Assembly: GCA_001777015.1 (NCBI GenBank)
Contig: MFCV01000044.1
Location: forward strand, 16,786 to 80,785
From: Candidatus Daviesbacteria bacterium RIFCSPHIGHO2_02_FULL_36_13
GTDB lineage: Bacteria; Patescibacteriota; Microgenomatia; Daviesbacterales; UBA10151
DNA: 64,000 bases
Direction: 5' to 3'
In this document: positions 4,147-36,330 of the stretch, one piece after another
Position numbering within the stretch: the stretch's first letter is position 1
How the letters are laid out: each line of letters opens with the position of its first letter
The notes under the pieces: model-generated
What the model was told of the DNA's origin: nothing
What the model saw: only the letters and a program-made list of their open reading frames with translations
The model's database searches: none
Translations under genes and position numbers: made by a program

Positions 4147-4888
4147 GAAAACGTAAATACCAGTTTAAAATATTAGTTCCCCAAAAAAGGGAGATTAAAC
4201 TAGCTAAAACTAAAAATGGACCAAATGGAATTACCTGACCAAACTTTTTCTTTTTTAAAATTATTAAGGCAACTGCAAAAATAGCTCCTGAAAAGAAAGA
4301 GAGCATAAGAGCCAGAATTCCATTTGGAAATCCCAGCCCAAGTCCTAAAAACATTCCCAACTTAACATCTCCGCCTCCCATGCCTTTGCCGCGGGTTATA
4401 ATTATTAAAATCAGAAAAAATCCTGCTATTACAAGTCCTGTTAGAAGAGAATCTAAAAAGTAATTATCAAAAATCATAAGATAAATAAGAGAAATTCCAA
4501 TTGATGGCAAGATTATAGAATCCGGAATAAGCATTTCTTTTAAATCTGTTAAGAAAATAATCCCTAAAATTGTTATGAAAAAGACATGAAAAATTAGACT
4601 TGGGGAAATTATTGGATTTAGGAAAAATAGCAGTCCTGTTAAAATTCCCATCCCAATTTCTACTAAAGGATACTCTATGCCAATTCTACTTTTGCAATAT
4701 CTACATTTCCCACCCAAAACAAAATAAGAAAGGATGGGTATAAGATCAAACCAAACCAGGGATTTTTTACACTTAGGACAATACGACCGCCCAGAAAAAG
4801 TTTCTTCTCTTAGGCTCCTATCAGCAAGAGCCTTAACAAGACTTCCTAAAATTGTACCTATCAAAAATCCAAAAAAGGCTGGAATCAT
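4136..4888 (-). CDS. pilD: Prepilin peptidase (A24 family, PilD)
   Basis: N-terminal CPKC...CRYC zinc-binding tetracysteine motif, polytopic membrane body, and the conserved GGGDVKL-like region. Lies next to pilC/pilT/pilB. Confidence 0.85.
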   Translation of the reverse strand: MIPAFFGFLIGTILGSLVKALADRSLREETFSGRSYCPKCKKSLVWFDLIPILSYFVLGGKCRYCKSRIGIEYPLVEIGMGILTGLLFFLNPIISPSLIFHVFFITILGIIFLTDLKEMLIPDSIILPSIGISLIYLMIFDNYFLDSLLTGLVIAGFFLILIIITRGKGMGGGDVKLGMFLGLGLGFPNGILALMLSFFSGAIFAVALIILKKKKFGQVIPFGPFLVLASLISLFWGTNILNWYLRFPNF

Positions 4889-6088
4889 TTATATTGATGT
4901 AGTGAGCTGATATATTGGCAATAGAATTGAGATTGCCAAAAATGCCACTCCCAGTCCTAAAACAACAAATATCAAAGGTTCTATAGCCACAGTTAAATTT
5001 TTAACCAGGTGATCTGATTCTGATTCAAAATATTGAGCCAGTTTAAAAAATATTTCATCAACTTTACCTGTTTCTTCTCCAACTTTAACCATTTGGCTAA
5101 CTATTTTTGGAAAATTTTCTTGAGTTAGAAGTAAAGATAAAGGCAGTCCTTTTTCAACTCCAGCATAAGCATCTTTTAAAGCACTTTTAAAAACTTTATT
5201 TTCAGTTAAAGAAGAGACTATGGCAATTGATTCCAAAAGGGGAATGCCAGCAGATATTAAAAGTCCAAAGGTTCTGGTGAAGTTTGTCAAAATTACAGAG
5301 GTGATTATTTTTCCAATAATAGGCAATTTTAAAAGCAGTTTTGAGACAAAATAACTTCCTTCTTCTGTTTTCATCCACTTATTTAAAGAAAGTCTTCCTG
5401 CAGTAATGATTATTAATCCTACCCACCAAAAGTTAATAAACAAGTTGGAAGAACCTATTAGAATTTTTGTTGGGAGAGGTAAGTCAATCGCTGATTCCTT
5501 ATATAAATCGGTTAATTTCGGGATAACAAATACCATCATAATAATAATGACCACTATCATAAGAGCGATAATAACCATAGGATAAATCATTGCTCCTTTT
5601 ATCCTGGCCTGAAATTCTCTTTCTTTTTCTAAATTATCCGCCATTTGAGTTAGCACCTGATCCAGCTTTCCTGATTCTTCACCGCTTTTAACTAAATTTA
5701 CATAAAGATTTGGGAAAATCTGAGGGTGCTTTCCTAAAGCTTGTGCCAGAGCCAATCCTCCTTTAACATCCTGGGAAATTTCAGATAAAGCCTTTTTTAA
5801 AACTTTATTTGTCTGTTGTTCTTCTAAGATATCTATAGCCTCTGATAAAACTAAACCACTGGAAATCATTGTAGCTAGTTGTCTTGTGATAACAACTAAG
5901 GTTGAAAAATTAATCCCGCTTGTAAATTTGGCTAGAAATCTGTTTATTGCTGGTTCTTTGTTATCAACTGAAATAACAATCAATCCTTTTTTTCTTAAGG
6001 TTGTTACAGCTGAGTGTGCATCATTGGCTTCAATAGTGCCTTTTTTTTCTTCACCATCAGGACTTTTAGCTAGGTATTTAAATTCCAT
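4889..6088 (-). CDS. pilC: Type IV pilus assembly platform protein PilC (GspF family)
   Basis: 399 aa with two repeated GspF-like domains and three TM segments (for example GKLDQVLTQMADNLEKE and GKVDEIFFKLAQYFESE repeats). Confidence 0.85.
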   Translation of the reverse strand: MEFKYLAKSPDGEEKKGTIEANDAHSAVTTLRKKGLIVISVDNKEPAINRFLAKFTSGINFSTLVVITRQLATMISSGLVLSEAIDILEEQQTNKVLKKALSEISQDVKGGLALAQALGKHPQIFPNLYVNLVKSGEESGKLDQVLTQMADNLEKEREFQARIKGAMIYPMVIIALMIVVIIIMMVFVIPKLTDLYKESAIDLPLPTKILIGSSNLFINFWWVGLIIITAGRLSLNKWMKTEEGSYFVSKLLLKLPIIGKIITSVILTNFTRTFGLLISAGIPLLESIAIVSSLTENKVFKSALKDAYAGVEKGLPLSLLLTQENFPKIVSQMVKVGEETGKVDEIFFKLAQYFESESDHLVKNLTVAIEPLIFVVLGLGVAFLAISILLPIYQLTTSI

Positions 6089-6089
6089 A

Positions 6090-7142
6090 TCATTCCACCA
6101 ATTTATTCAGAAGTTCGGGTCGGAGAGTATATTTTAGAGCCACTTCCTGAGAAATTTGTCCTGTTTTAATTAACTCAGCTAAAGACTTTTCTAAAAGCTG
6201 CATTCCAAAACCAGCTGAGGTTTCTATCATATTATCTAAAAGATAAGTTTTCTTTTCCCGGATGACATTTCTAACAGCAGGAGTTGCAAATAAAATTTCC
6301 GATGCTAAAATTCTGCCTGGTTGAATAGTTGGTATAAGTCTAAGAGATAAAATAGCTTCTAAAGTTGATGCTAACTGAAGCCTAATTTGAGGCTGCTGCT
6401 CCTCTGGAAATACATCAATAATACGGTCAATTGACTGAGCGGCAGAATTTGTATGAAGAGTAGCAAAAACTAGATGGCCAGTCTCTGCAATAGTCATGGC
6501 TGAAGAAATTGTTTCAAAATCACGCATTTCACCAACCAAAACAACATCCGGATCTTCCCTTAACACTGCCCTTAAAGCATTATTCCAGGACCTTGTATCC
6601 TTATACATTTCTCTTTGTTCAATCAAAGATTTTCCTTTGGGGTATACATACTCAATAGGATCCTCAACTGTCACAACATGTACAGCTCTTTCCTGATTAA
6701 TTTTATCAATAAATGAAGCTAAGACTGTAGATTTTCCATGACCTGTCGGACCTGTCACTAAAACAAATCCCTGCTTAATTTCTGTTAATTTAGTAACCAC
6801 TTCAGGAAGACCTAAACTTTTTAAAGGCGGGATGGCAAATGGAATTAATCTTAAAGAGGCTGCACTATGACCTTTTTGTCTGTAAATATTAGCTCTAAAT
6901 CTGGCCTTACCTTCATAATCAAAAGAAAAATCTACTTCATAATTTTGATTATAAATGTTTTTTTGAATTTCAGAGAGGAGGGGAAAGATTAAACTTTCTA
7001 CCTGTTCCTGAGTGGAGGGAACTTCCCCTGGGACAGGTATAAGATCTCCATGAATACGCAAAATTGGAGGAAATCCAACTGAAATATGTAAATCAGAAGC
7101 ATTTCTTTGGACTGTTAGTTCTAATAATTGTTGTATGTTCAT
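6090..7142 (-). CDS. pilT: Twitching motility retraction ATPase PilT
   Basis: Walker A GPTGHGKST, Asp box, and a PilT-type C-terminal region. Its 350 aa length is typical of PilT. Confidence 0.85.
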   Translation of the reverse strand: MNIQQLLELTVQRNASDLHISVGFPPILRIHGDLIPVPGEVPSTQEQVESLIFPLLSEIQKNIYNQNYEVDFSFDYEGKARFRANIYRQKGHSAASLRLIPFAIPPLKSLGLPEVVTKLTEIKQGFVLVTGPTGHGKSTVLASFIDKINQERAVHVVTVEDPIEYVYPKGKSLIEQREMYKDTRSWNNALRAVLREDPDVVLVGEMRDFETISSAMTIAETGHLVFATLHTNSAAQSIDRIIDVFPEEQQPQIRLQLASTLEAILSLRLIPTIQPGRILASEILFATPAVRNVIREKKTYLLDNMIETSAGFGMQLLEKSLAELIKTGQISQEVALKYTLRPELLNKLVE

Positions 7143-7197: not shown

Positions 7198-8916
7198 TTA
7201 ATCCTGTGCCACCCTTAGAACTTCTTCCATTGTTGTAACCCCCTCTAGCACTTTTAAATATCCATCCTGCTTCATTGTAATCATGCCAGAAGCCACTGCT
7301 GAAGCTTCTATATCTCCGCTTGATGCATGCTCCATCACCAGTTTTGTAATAGCATCTGTCATAATTAAAACCTCAAAAATTCCAATTCTTCCTAGATAGC
7401 CTGTATTGGCGCAAAACTTACATCCCTGTCCTTTATATAGTTTAAGAATGGCACTCTGATTGGCGGGTATAAAGTTTTTCAATACAGCTTTTATATTTTC
7501 TGTAACTTCAGGAGAGGCATTAAATTCCACCCTGCAGTGAGCACAAATTTTTCTTACCACTCTTTGAGCTAGAGCAGCATATAAAGAAGATGCTAAAAGA
7601 AATGGTTCAACTCCCATATCCAAAAGCCTGGGTGGAGCACCTGCAGCAGAATTTGTATGGAGAGTAGAAAAAACCTGATGACCTGTAAGAGCTGCCTGTA
7701 TGGCTAAATCTGCAGTTTCTGTATCACGAATTTCTCCTACAAATATAATATTCGGATCCTGTCTTAAAAAGGATCTTAAAGCAGATGCAAAAGTTAGTCC
7801 AACAGCAGCATTAACTTGCACCTGGTTTACCCCTGGAATCTGATATTCAACAGGATCCTCAATTGTGACAACATTAACCTTAGTGGTAGAAATTTTGGAA
7901 AGAACAGAATAAAGAGTAGTTGTTTTACCAGATCCTGTGGGGCCGCATACTAAAATAATACCGTGTGTTCTAAGCATTTGAGACTCTAGGGATTTAAATT
8001 GGGCACCTCTTAATCCCAGTTCTAAAAGAGTTGGGGCAGATGTGGATTTAGGCAAAAGTCTCATAACTACTTTTTCTCCATGCACTGTAGGGATAGTGGA
8101 CACACGTAAATCTACAGATTCTGAACCGGAAGTAAATGTAAAACGCCCATCCTGAGGAAGTCTTTTTTCATCTATTTTTAGGGTAGATAAAATCTTAATT
8201 CTGGAAACTAAAGCATCATGAACCCCTTTTGGCAGCAAGATCTTTTCCTGCAAAATCCCATCTATTCTGTATCTGACCCTGGTTCTATTTTCCTGAGGCT
8301 CAATATGAATATCGGAAGCACGGACTTTGACAGCATATTCCAAAAGCTCATTTATAATATTAGATACAGGAGCTTCTCTTACAACCTCAGGTCCAGCAGC
8401 TACCGCTTCTTCCGGCTTAACTGCCTGAACCTCTCTTAATGCAGAGGTAACCTCTGAAGTTAAATTTTGTGAATACTGATCATTAATTGCTTTTATAATA
8501 TCTTCAGGCAAAGCCAAATACGGCCTTACCCTAAGCCCTGATCTTTTCTCAATAAATTGGATAATTTGAATATCTAAAGGATCTTCCATAGCCACCCAAA
8601 GCTCATCACCTGTTTTCTCAAAAGGGATAGTTTTATAGCGGCGGGCGGCTGGCTCAGGAACCAAACTTAAAATATCAGCAGCTATTGCCTTACCTTCCAG
8701 TTTTATAAAAGGAACATTTAAAATTTGAGCTTTGGCTTGAGTAATTTTATCCTGGGGGACTAAATTATGCTGCAGTATCAGTTGATCAATTGTTGTTCCT
8801 GAATTTAAGCTTTCCTGCTTTAAAGCTGAAATTTGATCCCCGGTTAAAAGACCTTGTTTAGAAAGAATCTCTTCAATTGTATCGCCACTTGGAGCAGAAG
8901 CCGTGGTTTTGGGCAT
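7198..8916 (-). CDS. pilB: Type IV pilus assembly ATPase PilB (GspE family)
   Basis: Walker A GPTGSGKTTTLY and a C-terminal tetracysteine CAHC...CKFC. 572 aa with N-terminal GspE_N-like domains. Confidence 0.85.
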   Translation of the reverse strand: MPKTTASAPSGDTIEEILSKQGLLTGDQISALKQESLNSGTTIDQLILQHNLVPQDKITQAKAQILNVPFIKLEGKAIAADILSLVPEPAARRYKTIPFEKTGDELWVAMEDPLDIQIIQFIEKRSGLRVRPYLALPEDIIKAINDQYSQNLTSEVTSALREVQAVKPEEAVAAGPEVVREAPVSNIINELLEYAVKVRASDIHIEPQENRTRVRYRIDGILQEKILLPKGVHDALVSRIKILSTLKIDEKRLPQDGRFTFTSGSESVDLRVSTIPTVHGEKVVMRLLPKSTSAPTLLELGLRGAQFKSLESQMLRTHGIILVCGPTGSGKTTTLYSVLSKISTTKVNVVTIEDPVEYQIPGVNQVQVNAAVGLTFASALRSFLRQDPNIIFVGEIRDTETADLAIQAALTGHQVFSTLHTNSAAGAPPRLLDMGVEPFLLASSLYAALAQRVVRKICAHCRVEFNASPEVTENIKAVLKNFIPANQSAILKLYKGQGCKFCANTGYLGRIGIFEVLIMTDAITKLVMEHASSGDIEASAVASGMITMKQDGYLKVLEGVTTMEEVLRVAQD

Positions 8917-29709: not shown

Positions 29710-30630
29710 TTAATCCTTGTTGCCGCTATGAAATGCCTTGTGAACATCTTTTAGATGAGTATTGGTAACGTGGGTATAGATTTGAGTGGTTGAGATGTTT
29801 GAATGTCCAAGCATTTCCTGTACTGAGCGAATGTCTGCTCCATTCATCAGTAAATCTGTAGCAAAAGAGTGTCTTAGCGTATGAGGGGTTGCCTTAACCG
29901 GCAACCCCAAATTTTTGACATATTTTTCAACAATTCTTTCAATAGACCGGGTCGAAAGCCTCATAGCCTCACCATTGTTACTAGGATCAACTTTGCCCTG
30001 AAACCTTATAAAAAGAGGTTTAAAGCTATCTTTTCTGACGTCTAAAGATTTTTGAAGCCAATCTGCCGCACTGTCAGATATAAATACCACTCTCATCTTT
30101 CCGCCTTTTCCGATAATCCCAAACTCACGCCTGGTTAAATTAATGGTATTTGTATTTAAGGAAGCAAGCTCAGAAACCCTAAGCCCTGTTGAAAAAAGGG
30201 TTTCCAATATACTTCTATCTCTGATCCCATCCTTTTTAGTAGTATCCGGAGCCTCAAGCAGAGACTTTAATTGATCATCGCCCAAAACCTTAAGAGGTCT
30301 TGGATCAGAATCACCCAGCTCAACTTTTTCAGGGGAGAGGGTGTCAACATCAATTCTAGCCAAATACCGGAGGAATGCCCTTAAGGCTATCATAAAATAA
30401 TTTTGAGTGATTCTTTTTAAGCCCTTTTTTGTTTTGGGATCAGTAAACCTGGAAAGATAAAGCCTATATTTTCTAATCATGTTTAAATCAATTGCTTTTG
30501 CCTCAATATCACCTGCAAAGGTAAGGAATCTTTTTAAATAATGATCGTAATTTTTAATAGTCAACTGTGAGCAATTACGCTCAAGCTCCAGATATTCCAG
30601 AAAGTCTGTAATAAATGCTGAAAGAGTCAT
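29710..30630 (-). CDS. Tyrosine site-specific recombinase XerC/XerD family
   Basis: C-terminal catalytic region HTLRHSFATDLLMNGADIRSVQEMLGHSNISTTQIYTHV (R...HxxR...Y). Confidence 0.85.
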   Translation of the reverse strand: MTLSAFITDFLEYLELERNCSQLTIKNYDHYLKRFLTFAGDIEAKAIDLNMIRKYRLYLSRFTDPKTKKGLKRITQNYFMIALRAFLRYLARIDVDTLSPEKVELGDSDPRPLKVLGDDQLKSLLEAPDTTKKDGIRDRSILETLFSTGLRVSELASLNTNTINLTRREFGIIGKGGKMRVVFISDSAADWLQKSLDVRKDSFKPLFIRFQGKVDPSNNGEAMRLSTRSIERIVEKYVKNLGLPVKATPHTLRHSFATDLLMNGADIRSVQEMLGHSNISTTQIYTHVTNTHLKDVHKAFHSGNKD

Positions 30631-30697
30631 AGTTTAATGGTATGTTCTCGACTACGCTCGAACAATAAATTTTCTTCGACCGAAGTGGAGAAGTACT

Positions 30698-31411
30698 TTA
30701 CAAAAGTGCTAGTCCCAATATCCCAAGTATTGTTAAGATTGATCCAATAATTGCCAAAGTAAATGTAAGTTCTGTTGCTCCTGTATCTTCTCCCTTTCCA
30801 ACAATATCATCAATGGTTGGAGCAGTTACTGCTCCTGAAGCAGTTGATGTGTTTACACCCGGCTTTGGAGTAGTGGATGTAGTAGCTGCAGCACAAGTTG
30901 TACCTGAACCAATTGTATAATTACCATTCACAACAGAGCTTAAGACATCAGCAACCGTACCTCTTTCTACAACATTAGAATCAGTAGTATTAGTTTTATC
31001 ATTCGCATTAAAATCAAACTTCATTTGAGATACACCCGGTCCTGCATTTTCTTTAACAGTAAAATTAACTGTAGCCAAAGTACCCTTACCGGTAAAAGGA
31101 GAGGAAACAGAAGCCAACCCGGAAACTGTTAATTTTCCTGTAGTATCATCTATATTATTTCCAGGGTAATCAGGATATATTGAACCTGAAGAAATAGAAG
31201 TGGCTGAAAATTTGCTTTGGTCATAGGTCACAATGGCATCTGTTCCATCAGTTTGAGCACTGCCCGTATCAAGCACAATCTGTAAAGAAAAATTACATCC
31301 CTTATTAAAAGTACCTGAGGCAGGGGACAGAGAAAGGGAAGCAGCTAAGACAGCAGCTGGGCTAACTAACAACCAATAACTAACAACCAATAACTGAATT
31401 ATTCTTTTCAT
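30698..31411 (-). CDS. Secreted surface protein with a signal peptide and a C-terminal hydrophobic anchor (cohesin/Ig-like beta domain?)
   Basis: N-terminal signal MKRIIQLLVVSYWLLVSPAAVLA and a C-terminal ILTILGILGLALL helix. The signal-peptide region carries a 14-bp tandem duplication. Confidence 0.5.
   Translation of the reverse strand: MKRIIQLLVVSYWLLVSPAAVLAASLSLSPASGTFNKGCNFSLQIVLDTGSAQTDGTDAIVTYDQSKFSATSISSGSIYPDYPGNNIDDTTGKLTVSGLASVSSPFTGKGTLATVNFTVKENAGPGVSQMKFDFNANDKTNTTDSNVVERGTVADVLSSVVNGNYTIGSGTTCAAATTSTTPKPGVNTSTASGAVTAPTIDDIVGKGEDTGATELTFTLAIIGSILTILGILGLALL
31366..31393. repeat. 14-bp tandem duplication (CTAACAACCAATAA x2) within the signal-peptide codons of the 30698-31411 surface protein gene
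   Basis: Read directly from the sequence. The unit length is not a multiple of 3. Confidence 0.85.
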
Positions 31412-32064
31412 GGTGTTATTTCAATATTTACATCTTTAGTTTTCTTAAGAATATCAACCCCTTCAGATGACACAAGATTTGAATCCCTGCTGTCACCCTC
31501 CTTATATTCTATGGTAACACTTTCTACTCCTACTGCTTTGGCAGTGAATGATATAGTTGCCATATTGGAATCTCCCTTAAAATTTTGTCCCTCAGCTACA
31601 CCTGAAATCCGAATTATTCCCTCCTTTGAATCTACTTCTACTAAAGGATAGGCTGAAAAAGCCAAACCTGTTTGAATATCAGTGTTAGTCAATGATAATA
31701 ATTTAGGATTGTATTTTAATATGACATCTCCTCCCAAAACTTCATGTCCGCCTGTTGAAATATTTACAGAAACTGTAACTTTTTGCCCTATTTTTATAGA
31801 AGTTGAGGAGGCTGAAAGACTAATAGATCCATCTGTCAAGGACTCCCCAACAATTGCCTGTTCTGGAGTAACCTGGGTAGGGGAGGAGTCTTTCATCAGT
31901 GTACTTATTCCAAAAACTATCTCAATTAAAATGATTGCTCCCAATACTCCAAATATTACTTTAGGATTTAAATATTTAGTAATATTAGGATTACTTTTTT
32001 GTTCTACTCTTTCTGTAACAATTGTCTTTAAATTTGGATCCATAATTTCATAGTAACATATCAA
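31408..32064 (-). CDS. Hypothetical N-terminally anchored exported protein
   Basis: One N-terminal TM (VIFGVLGAIILIEIVFGI) followed by a beta-rich Ser/Thr-rich domain. Confidence 0.45.
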   Translation of the reverse strand: MICYYEIMDPNLKTIVTERVEQKSNPNITKYLNPKVIFGVLGAIILIEIVFGISTLMKDSSPTQVTPEQAIVGESLTDGSISLSASSTSIKIGQKVTVSVNISTGGHEVLGGDVILKYNPKLLSLTNTDIQTGLAFSAYPLVEVDSKEGIIRISGVAEGQNFKGDSNMATISFTAKAVGVESVTIEYKEGDSRDSNLVSSEGVDILKKTKDVNIEITP

Positions 32065-33752
32065 ATACTGCTAACTGAAGCAGATGGGACGGCTGTAGCA
32101 GATGGAGCAACAGAAGTTTGAACTGGTTTGGAGATAGGGCCAGCAGTTGGTTCAGCATCATCTGAAGCTCCAAAATCAAATCTCATACAAGCCCAGTCAA
32201 AAGAGTTAACCAACCCATCATCATTGAAATCTCCTGGCTTATCACCTCCTGATCCAACAATTCTCCACTCACGGAGTAATTCTGATGCATCAGCTGAATT
32301 AATTTTGCCGTCCCCGCCATCCAAAGGAAAGATGTCCCCAACAGGCAATTTTACATTTGAAAGAATAGTTGTTCCGCGACCTGCATTAAACTCAATGACT
32401 TTTCTAACACTCTTAGGAGCCTCTAAACTTACTTTATAGCCTTGTCCTTCTACCAGCTTGGTATTAGTCATACCTTGCACTAAGCCCTTCTTATCTATAG
32501 AAACTGTAGATCTTACAATCTGACCCTTATCTTTTCCTTCAGCCAATATTAAGCTGACAGCATTGACTACAGAAGTTTGAGGTGCACGGCAGAAAAGTTT
32601 AGTTCCCAAAGATAGCTGAGATAGGGAAGAGCAGCTTCCTTCAACAGATAGTCCTTTTTTATCAGTTATTTTGATCTGGAATACCTGATCAGTAGGCTGA
32701 CCGGAAAGTACAGCTATAATACGTCCATCATCCCATCTTTCTAATTTTAAGGTTTGTAAATTAACATCTCCCATTTCAACTTTTCCGGTTTCTGCTCCAA
32801 ATCCATTTCCAACTCCAGCTTTGGGTAGAATCTCAAAAGTAACTCTGTCTGCTTTTGAGGTATCAACACTACATGAAGCAATGGATGGAACTGAGATAAG
32901 TTCAATGGTGGCACTGCAAGCCTGGGTTTGGTTGGTGCCGCATCCGCCCCACTTACCAGCGATATCCTTAAACATGACAAACACAAAATTAGCCCCAATC
33001 TTTGGATTTTGGAAAGTATAAGAGGTTATAAGATTGCCGCTTGCATCAACTGTATATGGCAATTCAGGAGCCAAATTTAATCCTTCAACTGTCTCAGAAA
33101 TTTTATAGGAAACAGTACTTAGCCCAGGTGGTGTAGATTGTCTGGTAACTGTGACTCTGGCAATTACTGTCTGATGCGAGGTTCCCTGATATAGCTTAAA
33201 CTCATAACTACTTCCTGGTTCAATCCAGGGAGCAACTTCGGAACCACTTGGATTTTGCCAAACCGGTCCAATGTCCGAAGCTCCGTCAATTGATACATAT
33301 ACTTGTCCTGCTGAACCATCACCGGTATTCCAGGTAATAGTGGTTGAACTATTAGTTGTAGGGTTAGGAGCTGCAGAAATTTTGTTGGTAGTGGAACCTC
33401 CTGTAACAGTTACACTTACTGAGTGAAGTTTGCTGGAACCTGAACATAAATCAAAAATATAACCCTGGGCATCTATCCAATTGGCTGTATATGTGCCGGT
33501 TGGTACACTAGCAGGATTTACTCCTGTACAATCAGCTTCTCCAGACCTATGGGCACGTACTGATACATTAGAGGCATTAGAGGTAGACCAGGTAATTATT
33601 GTTCCACAGTGAGTGGCACCAGCTCCACCAATTCCTAAGATACAGGGATTAGGGGAGGCAGTAATTGTACCCGTTGCAGCAGCATATACAGGAGTTACAA
33701 GTGTTATTAAAAAACTTATATAAACAAACAAACTTAAAAATATTTTTTTCAT
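32061..33752 (-). CDS. Large secreted multi-domain surface protein with a C-terminal dockerin-like Ca-binding module
   Basis: Signal peptide MKKIFLSLFVYISFLITLVTPVYA, repeated Cys-containing beta domains, and C-terminal DGGDGKINSADASELL...DFNDDGLVNSFDW resembling the dockerin duplicated F-hand. The N-terminal domain is paralogous to the upstream gene. Confidence 0.55.
   Translation of the reverse strand: MKKIFLSLFVYISFLITLVTPVYAAATGTITASPNPCILGIGGAGATHCGTIITWSTSNASNVSVRAHRSGEADCTGVNPASVPTGTYTANWIDAQGYIFDLCSGSSKLHSVSVTVTGGSTTNKISAAPNPTTNSSTTITWNTGDGSAGQVYVSIDGASDIGPVWQNPSGSEVAPWIEPGSSYEFKLYQGTSHQTVIARVTVTRQSTPPGLSTVSYKISETVEGLNLAPELPYTVDASGNLITSYTFQNPKIGANFVFVMFKDIAGKWGGCGTNQTQACSATIELISVPSIASCSVDTSKADRVTFEILPKAGVGNGFGAETGKVEMGDVNLQTLKLERWDDGRIIAVLSGQPTDQVFQIKITDKKGLSVEGSCSSLSQLSLGTKLFCRAPQTSVVNAVSLILAEGKDKGQIVRSTVSIDKKGLVQGMTNTKLVEGQGYKVSLEAPKSVRKVIEFNAGRGTTILSNVKLPVGDIFPLDGGDGKINSADASELLREWRIVGSGGDKPGDFNDDGLVNSFDWACMRFDFGASDDAEPTAGPISKPVQTSVAPSATAVPSASVSSI
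33138..33220. repeat. 83-bp segment identical to 33757-33839 (direct repeat shared by the two adjacent paralogous surface-protein genes)
   Basis: TTGTCTGGTAACTGTGACTCTGGCAATTACTGTCTGATGCGAGGTTCCCTGATATAGCTTAAACTCATAACTACTTCCTGG occurs at both sites. The flanking sequence is only about 75% identical. Confidence 0.85.
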
Positions 33753-33753
33753 A

Positions 33754-34644
33754 TTATTGTCTGGTAACTGTGACTCTGGCAATTACTGTCTGATGCGAGG
33801 TTCCCTGATATAGCTTAAACTCATAACTACTTCCTGGATTAATCCAAGGTGCAACCTCAGTACCAGTTTTATTTTGCCAAACCAGGAAATCTGTAGCTCC
33901 ATCAATAGATACATATACTTGTCCATCACCTTTAGCATCCCAAGTAATAGTGGTTGAACCATTAGTTGTTGGGTTAGGGGAGGCAGAAATAGTACCAGTA
34001 GTACTACCAGAACCACCACCAGAAGCTACGCCTTGAACAAATACCTTTGCAAGATGTGTATTACCTACACAAAGATGAAACCAGTAGCCGATAGCATCTA
34101 TCCAATTGGCTGATTGCGGACCATTAGTAGCGTTCCAAACTAAACCTCCAGTACAAACATCGGCATCATTTCTGTCATACTTTACATCAGCAGTTCCAGT
34201 ATTTGTAGTAGACCAGTTAATAGTGGCTTTGCAGTGAGTTTCATCAGCCCCACCTCCAACAGTTCCTAAGGTACAAGTAGAGGCAGTAATGGTACCAGTA
34301 GCAGTTCCAGGAGCTGTTGTTGGAGCAGTGGTTGGTGCAGTTGTTGGAGCAGTAGTGGGAGCTGGAATAAGTCCAAAAGGGGAGACAAGTTGTAATCCTA
34401 CTTTAGGATTGCCGTCTTTATCTAAAGTAAAGTACTTTGTTCCATCTGTTTTATCCTTAACATTTTCTCCTGTAAATGTAATTGGAGGAGCAGCAGCTCT
34501 GGATCTAAAAATTTGCTGTTTTTGAACAAGGGAAATTATTAAAGGTAGAGCGGTAATTATTATGCCCATCCCCAGCAGGGAAATTATGTTCCTTTTATTG
34601 CTAAAAAAACTACGTAGTTCGTCCATGGATGGATATATATCCAT
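33754..34644 (-). CDS. Secreted surface protein paralog with an (APTT)n Pro/Thr linker
   Basis: N-terminal TM/signal, linker APTTAPTTAPTTAPTTAPG, and two domains homologous to the N-terminal domains of the 32061-33752 protein. Confidence 0.55.
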   Translation of the reverse strand: MDIYPSMDELRSFFSNKRNIISLLGMGIIITALPLIISLVQKQQIFRSRAAAPPITFTGENVKDKTDGTKYFTLDKDGNPKVGLQLVSPFGLIPAPTTAPTTAPTTAPTTAPGTATGTITASTCTLGTVGGGADETHCKATINWSTTNTGTADVKYDRNDADVCTGGLVWNATNGPQSANWIDAIGYWFHLCVGNTHLAKVFVQGVASGGGSGSTTGTISASPNPTTNGSTTITWDAKGDGQVYVSIDGATDFLVWQNKTGTEVAPWINPGSSYEFKLYQGTSHQTVIARVTVTRQ

Positions 34645-34717: not shown

Positions 34718-35257
34718 TTGCTTGATTCTTTTAGACTTGATATAATCAATCCTATGGCAGAACAATTAACTCAACTTGCTCAAGTATTTCTTAAAACTAA
34801 ACCCTCAGAGATTAAACCTCTTTATGAAAGTCCTACATGCACTGAATTGGAAAGAAATTTTAAAAGATTGCTTCTGGGCGGATTTCCTAATTTCAGGAAG
34901 TATCTACTTTGGCTGGAAACAAAATCTGGTCATAAACCTCTGGAGTTTTACCAAGGACCGGTTTGGGGTCTTCCAAAATGGACTTGTGGATCACCTCCTG
35001 ATGTTTACCAAACCGGACTTGTAAAAAACCCTTCTAATACAATAGTGGGTCACTCTGCAATAGGTCCCAGAAACGCAATTGTGGAAGTAAATGGCATCCT
35101 TTTTGCGGCTCTGGCTGATTTTGGAGGATTTGAGGTTACCAGACCTATCAGGGTTCCTTATAATGAAGAACTAAAACAGCCATTCCATGCATTACTTGCA
35201 GAAGTCACCCAACCTCTTCCCTTAGTAGAAAGCTTAAAGCCATATTTCCCATATTAG
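34718..35257 (+). CDS. Hypothetical protein
   Basis: 179 aa ORF; no family recognised. Confidence 0.4.
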   Translation: MLDSFRLDIINPMAEQLTQLAQVFLKTKPSEIKPLYESPTCTELERNFKRLLLGGFPNFRKYLLWLETKSGHKPLEFYQGPVWGLPKWTCGSPPDVYQTGLVKNPSNTIVGHSAIGPRNAIVEVNGILFAALADFGGFEVTRPIRVPYNEELKQPFHALLAEVTQPLPLVESLKPYFPY

Positions 35258-35499
35258 AGGATTAATATTGTACGACGTCGGAAACATATCTTAAAAATCC
35301 CTAAAAAATCTTCCTTATATATATAAACAAACTCCTGGCAAATTATAAAATAAAATTCTTTTAAAGGAAAAATAAAACTTCTAAGGGATGGCAGAATCAC
35401 AAGTAAATTAAAAACACCGCAGTCCAATGCAATCAAAGCAATTAAGAAGATTTTTGTGTAGATATTAATCAAAAATCTTCTCATAATGAGGCTTGAGAA

Positions 35500-36330
35500 T
35501 ATCTCTATGATTCAGTAATACTAGCCGAATGGTGCTTTGTGCATGGACAAGGTGTCTAATAAGACCATTTGTGCCTAGCCAGGCACGAGCCTCTACAATG
35601 CCCTAAAAACGGCTTGCCAGGGGACATAAGCACTAACTGGTCATCCAGAGTTTAGGGCTCTAGGAAGCCCTGAACTAGATGCTAGATATTAGAAACTAGA
35701 CGCTAGAAAAACAAACAAAAAATCAGTTGGGAATACAAAGAAATAGGCACAAATAAATGCAGTATAAAATCTGCTGGTTTAGCCATTAATTTAGCTCTAA
35801 GTTAGCCTTAGGTGCACTCCTCCAGTAACCACTTCCAGATCGTCGCATAAGATACATTGTGCGACATTAGGCGTATAGGGAAGTTCACCCTAGTAGAGAA
35901 TATACCGATGACTTAATAAATGTACAAGAGAACATAAAACACCTTTGTCTTCTGAATGATTCCTATTAAGATGCTTGTTCGGGAGGCACTCTCCTCCAAG
36001 AAGGGCTTCGTTAGGTTTCGGGAAACCTACGTCCTGTATTTTTCACGCTATTTAGCAATTATATACATCCCTTGCCAGAAGTGAGCGTGATAGATCTTAT
36101 GGTGATCAAGTTATTGATCACCTCAAGGCTTGCAGTGCACGAGCGTCAGCGAGAGCACGAAAGACTTATAGTTTTCCACATTCATGCCTGCCAACTACAT
36201 CATTCTATATCATTTCCCGCATGAGTACAGTATAACCCCATAGTTTTCACGGTTTCCTACTACTCTTTTCACACTCCTCCACTCTTGTCGTAGTTTGGAT
36301 TATTAAATCAAGCTAAACTCTCTCTTTTAG
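35500..36330. ncRNA. ORF-free, GC-richer, hairpin-dense ~830-bp region; candidate structured non-coding RNA(s) of unknown class
   Basis: No ORF of 60 aa or more on any frame in a genome that is otherwise more than 90% coding. Visibly higher GC than the flanks. Multiple perfect hairpins, for example GGTGATCAAGTTATTGATCACC and AGGTTTCGGGAAACCT. The class (RNase P, tmRNA or other) could not be assigned by eye. Confidence 0.25.

Follow-up and report, generated by a model that had tools for sequence, protein, structure and literature searches.

A predicted cell-surface display operon in Candidatus Daviesbacteria and evidence of gene conversion between two of its paralogous domains

What do four adjacent genes for exported beta-domain proteins encode in an uncultured groundwater bacterium, and why do two of these genes share a perfectly identical stretch within otherwise diverged domains? 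The genes lie in 64,000 nucleotides of contig MFCV01000044.1 (assembly GCA_001777015.1, positions 16,786 to 80,785 of the forward strand; hereafter the window) from Candidatus Daviesbacteria bacterium RIFCSPHIGHO2_02_FULL_36_13, a member of the Microgenomates within the Patescibacteria or candidate phyla radiation (CPR). An initial annotation, made from the sequence alone, described an adhesin-like gene cluster on the minus strand, a perfect repeat between paralogous domains and a recombinase gene at the edge of the cluster. We number the four genes 1 to 4 by rising coordinate, and their transcription order is gene 4, 3, 2, 1, followed by the recombinase gene xer. We consider it likely that the locus is a lineage-conserved cell-surface display operon, and that the repeat is the footprint of gene conversion between two copies of a domain that we call B. 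Relative to the initial annotation, this account adds cohesins and population evidence and removes the link to the recombinase.

Results

An identical tract at the end of two diverged domains

Protein alignment shows that the unit duplicated in genes 4 and 3 is not a single domain but a two-domain module, A-B, of about 175 amino acids, present as A1-B1 in gene 4 and as A2-B2 in gene 3 (Table 1). The perfect direct repeat covers 82 bp at the ends of B1 and B2, with an offset of 619 bp. It had been reported as 83 bp at 33138-33220 and 33757-33839; the repeat is real and perfect, but these limits include two mismatches at one end and stop one identical base short at the other. Nor does it join the last domain of the upstream gene to the first domain of the downstream gene, as was initially proposed, since the partner of B1 is the second domain of gene 3, B2, beyond which gene 3 continues for about 360 residues. 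In both genes the end of the repeat is also the end of the homology, at TAA in gene 4 and at TCT in gene 3.

Along the module, nucleotide identity increases stepwise from 59% in A through 79% over the 5' two-thirds of B to 100% over the last 27 codons. Among conserved degenerate codons, synonymous changes are found in 27 of 82 outside the tract and in none of 27 inside it. When nucleotide alignment columns were shuffled within B, the observed run was reached in 0 of 20,000 permutations (P<5e-5), and when codons were shuffled it was reached in 5 of 20,000; with conserved degenerate codons only, that is, at synonymous sites alone, 310 of 20,000 permutations reached it. The two A-B modules are old paralogues with homogenised B ends rather than a recent tandem duplicate, because A1 is closer to the A domains of other species (62-63% identity) than to A2 (48%) and because B1 and B2 are 84% identical.

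The exact proteins of the locus are encoded on 17-18 contigs that derive from different samples and pipelines, namely megahit k141 and k127 assemblies from ENA, the original Rifle scaffolds, NCBI assembly GCA_001776855.1 and JGI 3300002502. All of these contigs are at least 99.75% identical to the window, colinear with it and endowed with the same repeat structure, and the 82 bp are fewer than the final assembly k-mers (127/141) and also than the read length. Assembly collapse, which had been named as the finding that would undo the repeat, does not explain it: the repeat is not an artefact, because the same sequence recurs in independent assemblies and lies below the k-mer size.

The most direct evidence comes from one natural allele. 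Exactly 10 positions distinguish contig L050 (ERZ27254763, 4163 bp) from the window. They all fall within a 33-nt patch situated immediately 5' (in the coding sense) of the repeat in B2, and each turns the B2 base into the B1 base. Its perfect identity extends to position 33264 and thus amounts to 128 bp, and its protein P0001 reads WQNKTGTEVAPWINPG where the window protein reads WQNPSGSEVAPWIEPG. On the far side of the patch the identical run is 13 bp, which is below any assembler k-mer, so that graph collapse cannot create the L050 mosaic. The patch is a gene-conversion tract with B1 as the donor, and it documents conversion directly. The initial suggestion that the paralogous domains recently underwent gene conversion or recombination is thus backed by the permutation statistics and by this allele.

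A second contig, L051 (ERZ909588, megahit k127, 746 bp), forms a closed cycle with a unit of exactly 619 bp; its first and last 127 nt are identical, and it carries one single-nucleotide polymorphism. Its junction runs from B2-specific upstream sequence through the repeat into the gene 4 stop codon and the gene 3 signal peptide, an arrangement that does not exist in the window. Such a junction is expected from unequal crossing-over (tandem amplification) or from excision of a 619-bp circle, and L051 suggests that one of these occurred. Conversely, deletion of 619 bp between the repeats of the window is predicted to give an in-frame, fused-type protein of 654 amino acids.

Cohesin and dockerin modules in genes 1 to 3

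Cohesins are jelly-roll beta-sandwiches of about 140 amino acids. The product of gene 1 matches the Pfam model Cohesin (PF00963) over residues 33-143 with 41.2 bits against a cut-off of 24.1, and its UniRef name is already 'Cohesin domain-containing protein'. It consists of a signal peptide, the cohesin (amino acids ~24-167), a Ser/Thr-rich linker and a conserved C-terminal transmembrane tail. Gene 2 encodes an N-terminal transmembrane anchor (amino acids 29-49) followed by a cohesin-like domain (amino acids ~72-209), which is 27% identical to the gene 1 cohesin over 139 amino acids (BLASTP, E=8e-9), and its orthologues at the related loci L036, L039 and L042 match Pfam Cohesin. Domain prediction had been proposed for this cluster with dockerin, cohesin and Ig-like folds in mind; it bears out the Ig-like folds and, at family level, the dockerin, and it reveals the cohesins of genes 1 and 2 that were missed at first reading.

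As the criterion for a dockerin we used two tandem segments of ~22 residues, each with a 12-residue, EF-hand-like calcium loop of the form D-x-[DN]-x-D-G-x-[IV]-[ND]-x-x-D and a subsequent helix. In gene 3, loop 2 (DFNDDGLVNSFD) is fully canonical, and loop 1 (DGGDGKINSAD; L-D-G-G-D-G-K-I-N-S-A-D) keeps positions 5-12 without acidic residues at positions 1 and 3. The invariant columns of the family, D481, I484, D488, N510, D512 and N516, fall within these loops. The window protein scores 20.2 bits against Dockerin_1 (PF00404; cut-off 22.9, E=7e-4), with a match that begins at model position 6. At E<0.01, Dockerin_1 matches 13 of the 14 family members (best E-value 2.4e-9), and precomputed PF00404 matches exist for 5 of 15 database relatives. 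A profile of the family matches the solved type I dockerins 2mte_A and 1daq_A (the CelS dockerin) with E-values of about 1.3e-5, and also the solved dockerins 5nrm_B, 4fl4_A, 2y3n_B and 2vn6_B. The duplicated calcium-binding segment that had been called dockerin-like is therefore supported at the level of the family. No second dockerin motif was found anywhere in the 64 kb, and Pfam and NCBIfam searches of the four proteins identified neither a glycoside hydrolase nor a carbohydrate-binding module. Judged from these domain matches, genes 1 to 3 appear to be a cohesin-dockerin cassette, in which genes 1 and 2 would supply the cohesins and gene 3 the dockerin. We found no description of a cohesin or a dockerin in Daviesbacteria in the literature.

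The C-terminal tail of gene 1 (window 30701-30769), AELT(F/Y)T(L/V)AI(I/V/L)GSILT(I/V)LGILGLALL, is strongly conserved, for example in the orthologues of L036 and L039, and ends the protein without a charged tail. It contains no LPXTG, PEP-CTERM or PGF-CTERM motif and has no match in NCBIfam. Its role may be that of a simple tail anchor or of a sorting signal not yet described.

Architecture of the locus

The four minus-strand open reading frames are present as initially described, and the spacer between gene 1 and xer is 67 nt (Table 1). Gene 4 begins with an N-terminal membrane anchor (amino acids 20-40), followed by a QKQQIFRSRAA motif, a conserved segment of ~50 amino acids, the Pro/Thr linker and A1-B1, with the stop codon directly after B1. 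The linker, known at first as (APTT)n, is (APTT)4 with a 12-nt period. Homologues of the N-terminal 100 amino acids of gene 4 are found in relatives either in the first gene of the cluster or at the N terminus of the dockerin protein. Gene 3 encodes a signal peptide, A2-B2, an Ig-like stalk of ~265 amino acids, the dockerin and a Ser/Pro/Ala-rich tail, and its product corresponds to NCBI OGE30716.1/OGE42813.1 of Candidatus Daviesbacteria. Genes 4 and 3 meet at TAA-T-ATG, so that the gene 3 ATG lies 1 nt past the gene 4 stop; from this gap, we infer that the two genes may be translationally coupled. A programmed +1 frameshift that would fuse gene 4 to gene 3 was considered and rejected: before the ATG, the reading frame of gene 3 stays open over just 10 codons, the fusion would bury the signal peptide in the middle of the protein and no slippery motif precedes the stop.

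Table 1. Features of the locus with coordinates in the window (aa, amino acids; ORF, open reading frame).
Feature	Coordinates	Strand	Description	Basis
Repeat copy 1	33756..33837	-	Last 27 codons of B1 and first base of stop codon; identical to copy 2
Repeat copy 2	33137..33218	-	End of B2; identical to copy 1
Polymorphic conversion patch	33219..33251	-	All 10 L050 differences, B2 to B1 sequence
619-bp repeat unit	33137..33755	-	Signal peptide-A2-B2	L051 closes exactly on unit
Gene 4	33754..34644	-	296 aa; true start probably ATG at 34626	ORF and translation
(APTT)4 Pro/Thr linker	34306..34365	-	12-nt period	Repeat finding and translation
Domain A1	34030..34302	-	Gene 4 aa 115-205; FnIII/Ig-like beta-sandwich	AlphaFold, Foldseek
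Domain B1	33757..34002	-	Gene 4 aa 215-296; beta-sandwich
Gene 3	32061..33752	-	563 aa counted from ATG	ORF and translation
Domain A2	33405..33677	-	Gene 3 aa 26-116
Domain B2	33138..33392	-	Gene 3 aa 121-205
Gene 3 stalk	32343..33137	-	Gene 3 aa 206-470; about three tandem Ig-like/IPT-like beta-sandwich domains	Alignment, AlphaFold, Foldseek, profile match
Dockerin	32169..32339	-	Gene 3 aa 472-528
Gene 2	31408..32043 (or ..32064)	-	211 aa (or 218 aa)	ORF and translation
Gene 1	30698..31411	-	237 aa	ORF and translation
Xer-family tyrosine recombinase	29710..30630	-	306 aa; catalytic residues present

In the AlphaFold model, residues 210-470 of gene 3 form tandem beta-sandwiches with a predicted local distance difference test (pLDDT) score of 75-90. 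Foldseek matches of this stalk are to generic immunoglobulin (Ig) and fibronectin type III (FnIII) folds (SGBP-B, SbsB, Bap) with TM-scores of 0.1-0.35, and the family profile also matches the IPT-like domain D of cyclodextrin glucanotransferases (CGTase). The full-length model of gene 3, based on a family alignment of 14 sequences, has low confidence in the N-terminal A-B module and in the dockerin. A1-B1 was then modelled apart with an alignment of 55 sequences, which gave a mean pLDDT of 88.5 and two FnIII/Ig-like sandwiches with generic Foldseek matches (FnIII tandems, SiiE, GhpA). The term adhesin-like consequently holds in the generic sense that the modules are FnIII/Ig-like beta-sandwiches. 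The domain B family is widespread and has no Pfam model; an exhaustive HMMER search retrieved 669 cluster representatives among 1.84 billion at E<=1e-3, most of which match B. The C-terminal strands of B, in which the repeat lies, are the best-conserved part of the domain family (consensus ...Y.F.LY.GT......A.V.VT).

Conserved synteny and exchangeable passengers

A search with one genome per species yielded 23 related loci, either from Daviesbacteria/Patescibacteria or from metagenome-assembled genomes of the same synteny that are titled 'uncultured Gammaproteobacteria'. The gene order is conserved: yebC, ruvC, DUF5656, ~1 kb of non-coding DNA, often a second divergent tyrosine recombinase gene, one or more variable genes, and then the dockerin protein, the N-anchored cohesin, the C-anchored cohesin, xer, a holin-like gene, a 191-amino acid gene and a P-type ATPase. 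The triad of dockerin gene, N-anchored cohesin and C-anchored cohesin keeps its order in more than 20 Daviesbacteria loci and also occurs in an unrelated neighbourhood, in L042, beside PIN/MazE genes.

All relatives retain the stalk and the dockerin, and their N-terminal passengers are unrelated to one another, with cohesin-like, PKD-like and Cys-rich ones among them. In 9 relatives a single open reading frame fuses a gene-4-type N terminus (transmembrane helix and QQQxxxSRAA-like motif) to a gene-3-type C terminus; the split two-gene form is found in the window, L019 and L032. The proteins P0002 and P0004 are mosaic, being nearly identical over the last ~190 amino acids and divergent before. 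High-identity internal repeats also occur in the variable zone of relatives, for example 119 nt at 100% identity in L019 and 193 nt at 99.5% in L015, where repeats range from 93 to 99%. Such comparisons mark the locus as a recombination-prone, modular surface-protein region.

The Gammaproteobacteria titles (L013, L015, L020, L021, L025, L026 and L029; 55-80% protein identity) are almost certainly wrong and no more than placeholders. An N-terminal signature, in which a transmembrane helix is followed by (V/A)xxQQQxx(K/R)S(R/K)A(A), recurs in many large surface proteins of these genomes. It is carried by gene 4 (amino acids 20-51, window 34492-34587), P0005, P0012, P0013, L036 2685-3602/3602-4471 and L039 5998-7998, and neither Pfam nor NCBIfam holds a model for it. 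The signature could be a lineage-specific export or sorting signal.

The neighbouring recombinase

The gene xer encodes a full-length Xer-family enzyme (Pfam Phage_integrase, 152 bits), for which the NCBIfam scores for XerC (236 bits), XerD (233 bits) and XerA (213.5 bits) are all below the equivalog cut-offs. In all relatives xer is the neighbour of gene 1, and it often extends across the stop codon of that gene. The orthologue is cut to ~230 amino acids, before the HxxR/Tyr catalytic region, in L017, L023, L026 and L033 and is disrupted in L019, so that xer is dispensable in these five of about 20 relatives, in which the cluster is intact. Because gene 1 and xer overlap in many relatives, the intergenic spacer is unconserved and holds no conserved site. 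Inverted repeats in the window are weak (73-85% complementary over 20-28 nt). A comparison of the two places where contigs recurrently break (~30.63-30.74 kb and ~35.44-35.47 kb) for att- or dif-like repeats found just 8-mers in common. A XerC/XerD chromosome-dimer resolvase would be expected to score at equivalog level, to have a cognate dif site and to be kept intact in relatives; no dif site was identified. The placement of a XerC/XerD-family recombinase at the cluster edge, as initially annotated, is correct, but its explanatory value is lost in view of the conserved synteny in more than 20 genomes, the five decayed orthologues and the lack of bracketing sites. Nothing in these sequences indicates that the cluster is a substrate of the recombinase.

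Upstream of the cluster, L013, L015-L019, L021, L023, L026, L029 and L034 encode a second tyrosine recombinase with 31-45% identity to the Xer of the window. Its gene is preceded by a canonical TTGACA-17-TATTAT promoter and has no counterpart in the window. In L016, this second recombinase gene and its promoter lie between the arms of a perfect 24-nt inverted repeat (6684-6707 and 8552-8575) with an inner 7-5-7 dyad. Such an arrangement directly before the surface operon, which the window lacks, would be compatible with an invertible promoter switch.

Discussion

Taken together, these findings favour a display operon in which paralogous passenger domains exchange sequence. According to this reading, the cohesin proteins of genes 1 and 2 would be held in the membrane by a C-terminal and an N-terminal transmembrane helix, respectively, and the product of gene 3 would be a secreted modular protein with a variable passenger (A2-B2), a conserved Ig-like stalk and a C-terminal dockerin. 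This dockerin is predicted to bind the cohesin of gene 1, gene 2 or both in a calcium-dependent manner, which would tether the passenger to the cell surface. Gene 4 would show a near-copy of the passenger, A1-B1, on a membrane anchor and Pro/Thr linker of its own. The four proteins lack glycoside hydrolases and carbohydrate-binding modules, and the likely role is attachment or surface architecture rather than polysaccharide breakdown. The repeat is probably maintained by RecA-type gene conversion between B1 and B2, two direct copies at a distance of 619 bp; the 3' end of B has been homogenised repeatedly, and conversion is ongoing in the natural population, in which one allele has the longer tract of 128 bp. 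Some conversion events may end in unequal exchange. The Xer recombinase is needed neither for display nor for conversion.

Several observations weigh against this account. At synonymous sites alone, the permutation is just moderately significant (P about 0.016). The cycle of L051 could be a de Bruijn-graph artefact that results from tip removal around the repeat at low coverage. No deletion (fusion) allele was found, and the searches able to show one were uninformative: an exact scan of the metagenome contig collection for the predicted deletion junction had no match, but neither had the 40-nt repeat core of the parental form, and an exact look-up of the 654- and 629-amino acid fusion proteins came back empty, as it did for gene 4 itself (296, 290 and 271 amino acids). 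The window protein of gene 2 has no Pfam cohesin match of its own. The window dockerin is below the Pfam gathering threshold, its first calcium loop lacks the first two acidic ligands, and AlphaFold confidence is low over this segment.

Among the alternatives, the one that fares best, although we regard it as unlikely, is a programmed switch, in which repeats of 82-128 bp are a selected substrate and deletion or amplification of 619 bp toggles between the split and the fused form or alters copy number, as a means of phase or antigenic variation. It draws on the in-frame 654-amino acid deletion product, the architecture of which is the commonest among the relatives, on the L051 junction as the reciprocal of a deletion (a duplication or an excised circle), and on the recurrence of high-identity internal repeats in the variable part of relatives such as L019 and L015. 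Yet no deletion allele has been seen, all 18 locus-spanning contigs have the split form, a deletion is not readily reversible and L051 is possibly an assembly artefact; ordinary homogenisation of paralogues accounts for all of the observations. We give similarly little credence to a broader proposal, namely a dock-and-anchor system throughout the Daviesbacteria lineage with passengers reshuffled by intra-locus recombination, in which the repeat flips between split, fused and amplified forms in this organism. If this were true, flipping would change the manner and the amount in which the FnIII-like module is shown to a host or to phages.

Much less probable is a minimal cellulosome-like complex for the degradation of polysaccharides. 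The cohesin and dockerin modules could be read in this way, as could the stalk, the fold of which weakly resembles a Bacteroides surface glycan-binding protein and CGTase domain D. However, a glycoside hydrolase, a carbohydrate-binding module and a multi-cohesin scaffoldin are all missing from the four proteins, the 64 kb hold a single dockerin, and the fold matches are generic Ig/FnIII ones with the low TM-scores given above.

We consider it slightly less credible again that Xer drives a site-specific rearrangement in the style of Mycoplasma vpma/vsa or a shufflon, with the repeat being or containing its site. In its favour, xer lies directly beside the cluster, with an overlap across the gene 1 stop in several relatives; in many relatives a second, divergent recombinase gene upstream means that the cluster is bracketed, and in L016 this second gene is enclosed by a perfect 24-nt inverted repeat. 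Against this, the four genes have the same orientation, the inverted repeats of the window are weak, the two cluster boundaries have nothing in common and all 18 contigs are colinear. Moreover, the repeat is the coding end of a homologous domain and has no core-type dyad, the cluster is intact beside a truncated or disrupted xer in L017, L019, L023, L026 and L033, and the second recombinase is missing from the window. The variable length of the identical tract (82 versus 128 bp) argues for homologous rather than site-specific recombination.

Identity without any recombination, owing to purifying selection or a codon or RNA constraint on the end of B, or to a very recent duplication, is still harder to sustain. 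The C-terminal strands of B are indeed the most conserved part of the domain family, but 27 of 27 codons are synonymously identical within the tract, as against 11 of 40 conserved degenerate codons that differ synonymously in the rest of B. A recent duplication of the whole module is excluded by the 59% identity of A and the greater closeness of A1 to domains of other species, and the 10 donor-identical changes of L050 are inexplicable by mutation. Least probable of all is an assembly artefact, by collapse or chimeric join, at which the short contig L011 might hint by terminating inside the repeat, since the identical sequence is found in 18 contigs from at least 4 pipelines and many samples and the repeat is shorter than the final k-mers and the reads.

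How does a display operon with conversion between its B domains compare with known systems? Non-cellulosomal cohesin-dockerin pairs have reportedly been catalogued across bacteria and archaea by Peer et al. (2009, FEMS Microbiol Lett), and examples include the pairs of Archaeoglobus fulgidus and the toxin/sialidase complexes of Clostridium perfringens. As in these pairs, the modules of Daviesbacteria lie outside a cellulolytic context and are encoded close to each other, and the dockerin protein is free of glycoside hydrolases. Unlike them, the Daviesbacteria set is a fixed three-gene cassette of one dockerin protein and two single-cohesin proteins, transmembrane helices take the place of S-layer homology (SLH) domains or sortase as cohesin anchors, the cassette is syntenic throughout a CPR lineage, the FnIII/Ig-like passengers are hypervariable and the first calcium loop is atypical. 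There is also a likeness to the anchoring of Clostridium (Acetivibrio) thermocellum, where cell-bound cohesins (SdbA, OlpB and Orf2p) capture a dockerin-tagged protein (CipA) for display. In contrast to C. thermocellum, however, the Daviesbacteria set has one cohesin per anchoring protein and lacks a multi-cohesin scaffoldin, enzymes, a carbohydrate-binding module and an SLH anchor, and we rejected its identification as a cellulosome after examining it for scaffoldin, enzymes and carbohydrate-binding modules.

Gene conversion or concerted evolution of surface paralogues is known from Neisseria pilE/pilS, Mycoplasma genitalium mgpB/MgPar and Borrelia vlsE. The present locus resembles these in that donor-identical tracts lie in diverged surface paralogues and in that tract length is polymorphic in the population. 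It differs in having only two copies, both in presumably expressed genes, without an archive of silent cassettes, and in that the outcome is homogenisation instead of diversification, without a known initiation element. In Mycoplasma vpma/Xer1 and vsa/HvsR, Xer-type recombinases drive the switching of surface lipoproteins. There, too, a tyrosine recombinase gene adjoins a variable surface-protein cluster, but here the genes are co-oriented, inverted sites are absent, the recombinase has decayed in several relatives and tract length varies.

Current understanding is not overturned by these findings, as both non-cellulosomal cohesin-dockerin pairs and the concerted evolution of surface paralogues are well known. 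CPR or Patescibacteria organisms are mostly uncultured and many of them are attached to other cells, by surface proteins that are largely unknown, and this locus provides a concrete candidate: a cassette that more than 20 Daviesbacteria genomes carry at one and the same position, in which stalk and dockerin are conserved and the outward-facing domains freely exchanged. The repeat also makes gene conversion directly visible in an uncultured organism, through alternative alleles in public metagenome assemblies, which is rarely possible. The nearest precedent found within the CPR comes from the saccharibacterium Southlakia epibionticum, whose dockerin-domain envelope protein SEML1_0315 is essential and has a proposed role in interaction with the host surface (Wang et al. 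2023, Cell, PMC10633639), an article in which cohesins are unmentioned. SEML1_0315 is similar to the gene 3 product in being a dockerin-bearing envelope protein of Patescibacteria; it belongs to another lineage and is likened here by description, not by sequence. Because a dockerin protein is essential in this cultivated saccharibacterium, dockerin modules may matter generally in the group.

Neighbouring regions and further observations

Between the DUF5656 gene and the 167/179-amino acid gene (~35430-36326) lies a gene-free stretch of ~0.9-1 kb, with 68-76% nucleotide conservation across Daviesbacteria species. It is conserved about as well as the coding flanks, and all relatives have a gap of 0.7-1.1 kb at this place. 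Sharply conserved blocks within it include GTGAAAA repeats, TGTCGCACAATAT and a block of ~110 nt at 35560-35679. A structured RNA was considered and rejected, given that there was no Rfam match and that RNAalifold (12 species, both strands) gave no better than -2.1 kcal/mol. An origin of replication was likewise rejected, with a single DnaA-box-like 9-mer in the stretch. GC skew near xer was examined for a terminus or origin, a reading we rejected as the skew tracks blocks of gene orientation; over the window (1-64000), its sign switches at ~8-9 kb and ~25-26 kb coincide with switches in gene orientation.

The 167/179-amino acid open reading frame itself (34718-35257, plus strand) has no family match. 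Its DNA is 89.8% identical to the counterpart in a co-occurring species (L039 4253-4824), as compared with about 75% for the flanking genes, and in L039 the gene pair that contains this counterpart lies between 115-nt direct repeats that are 84% identical (4186-4300 and 5538-5649). These sequence comparisons suggest that a small cassette was transferred recently. In many other relatives, the second tyrosine recombinase gene occupies the place of this open reading frame.

Independent contigs end repeatedly at 30629-30736 and 35439-35465, and also at 34797; no common repeat or alternative neighbour was found at these recurrent ends. In the spacer between gene 1 and xer, contigs break from both sides with an overlap of about 50-60 nt. 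Other contig ends lie near a hairpin with a 12-bp stem at about 35450-35497, and two contigs of 4163 bp have identical ends.

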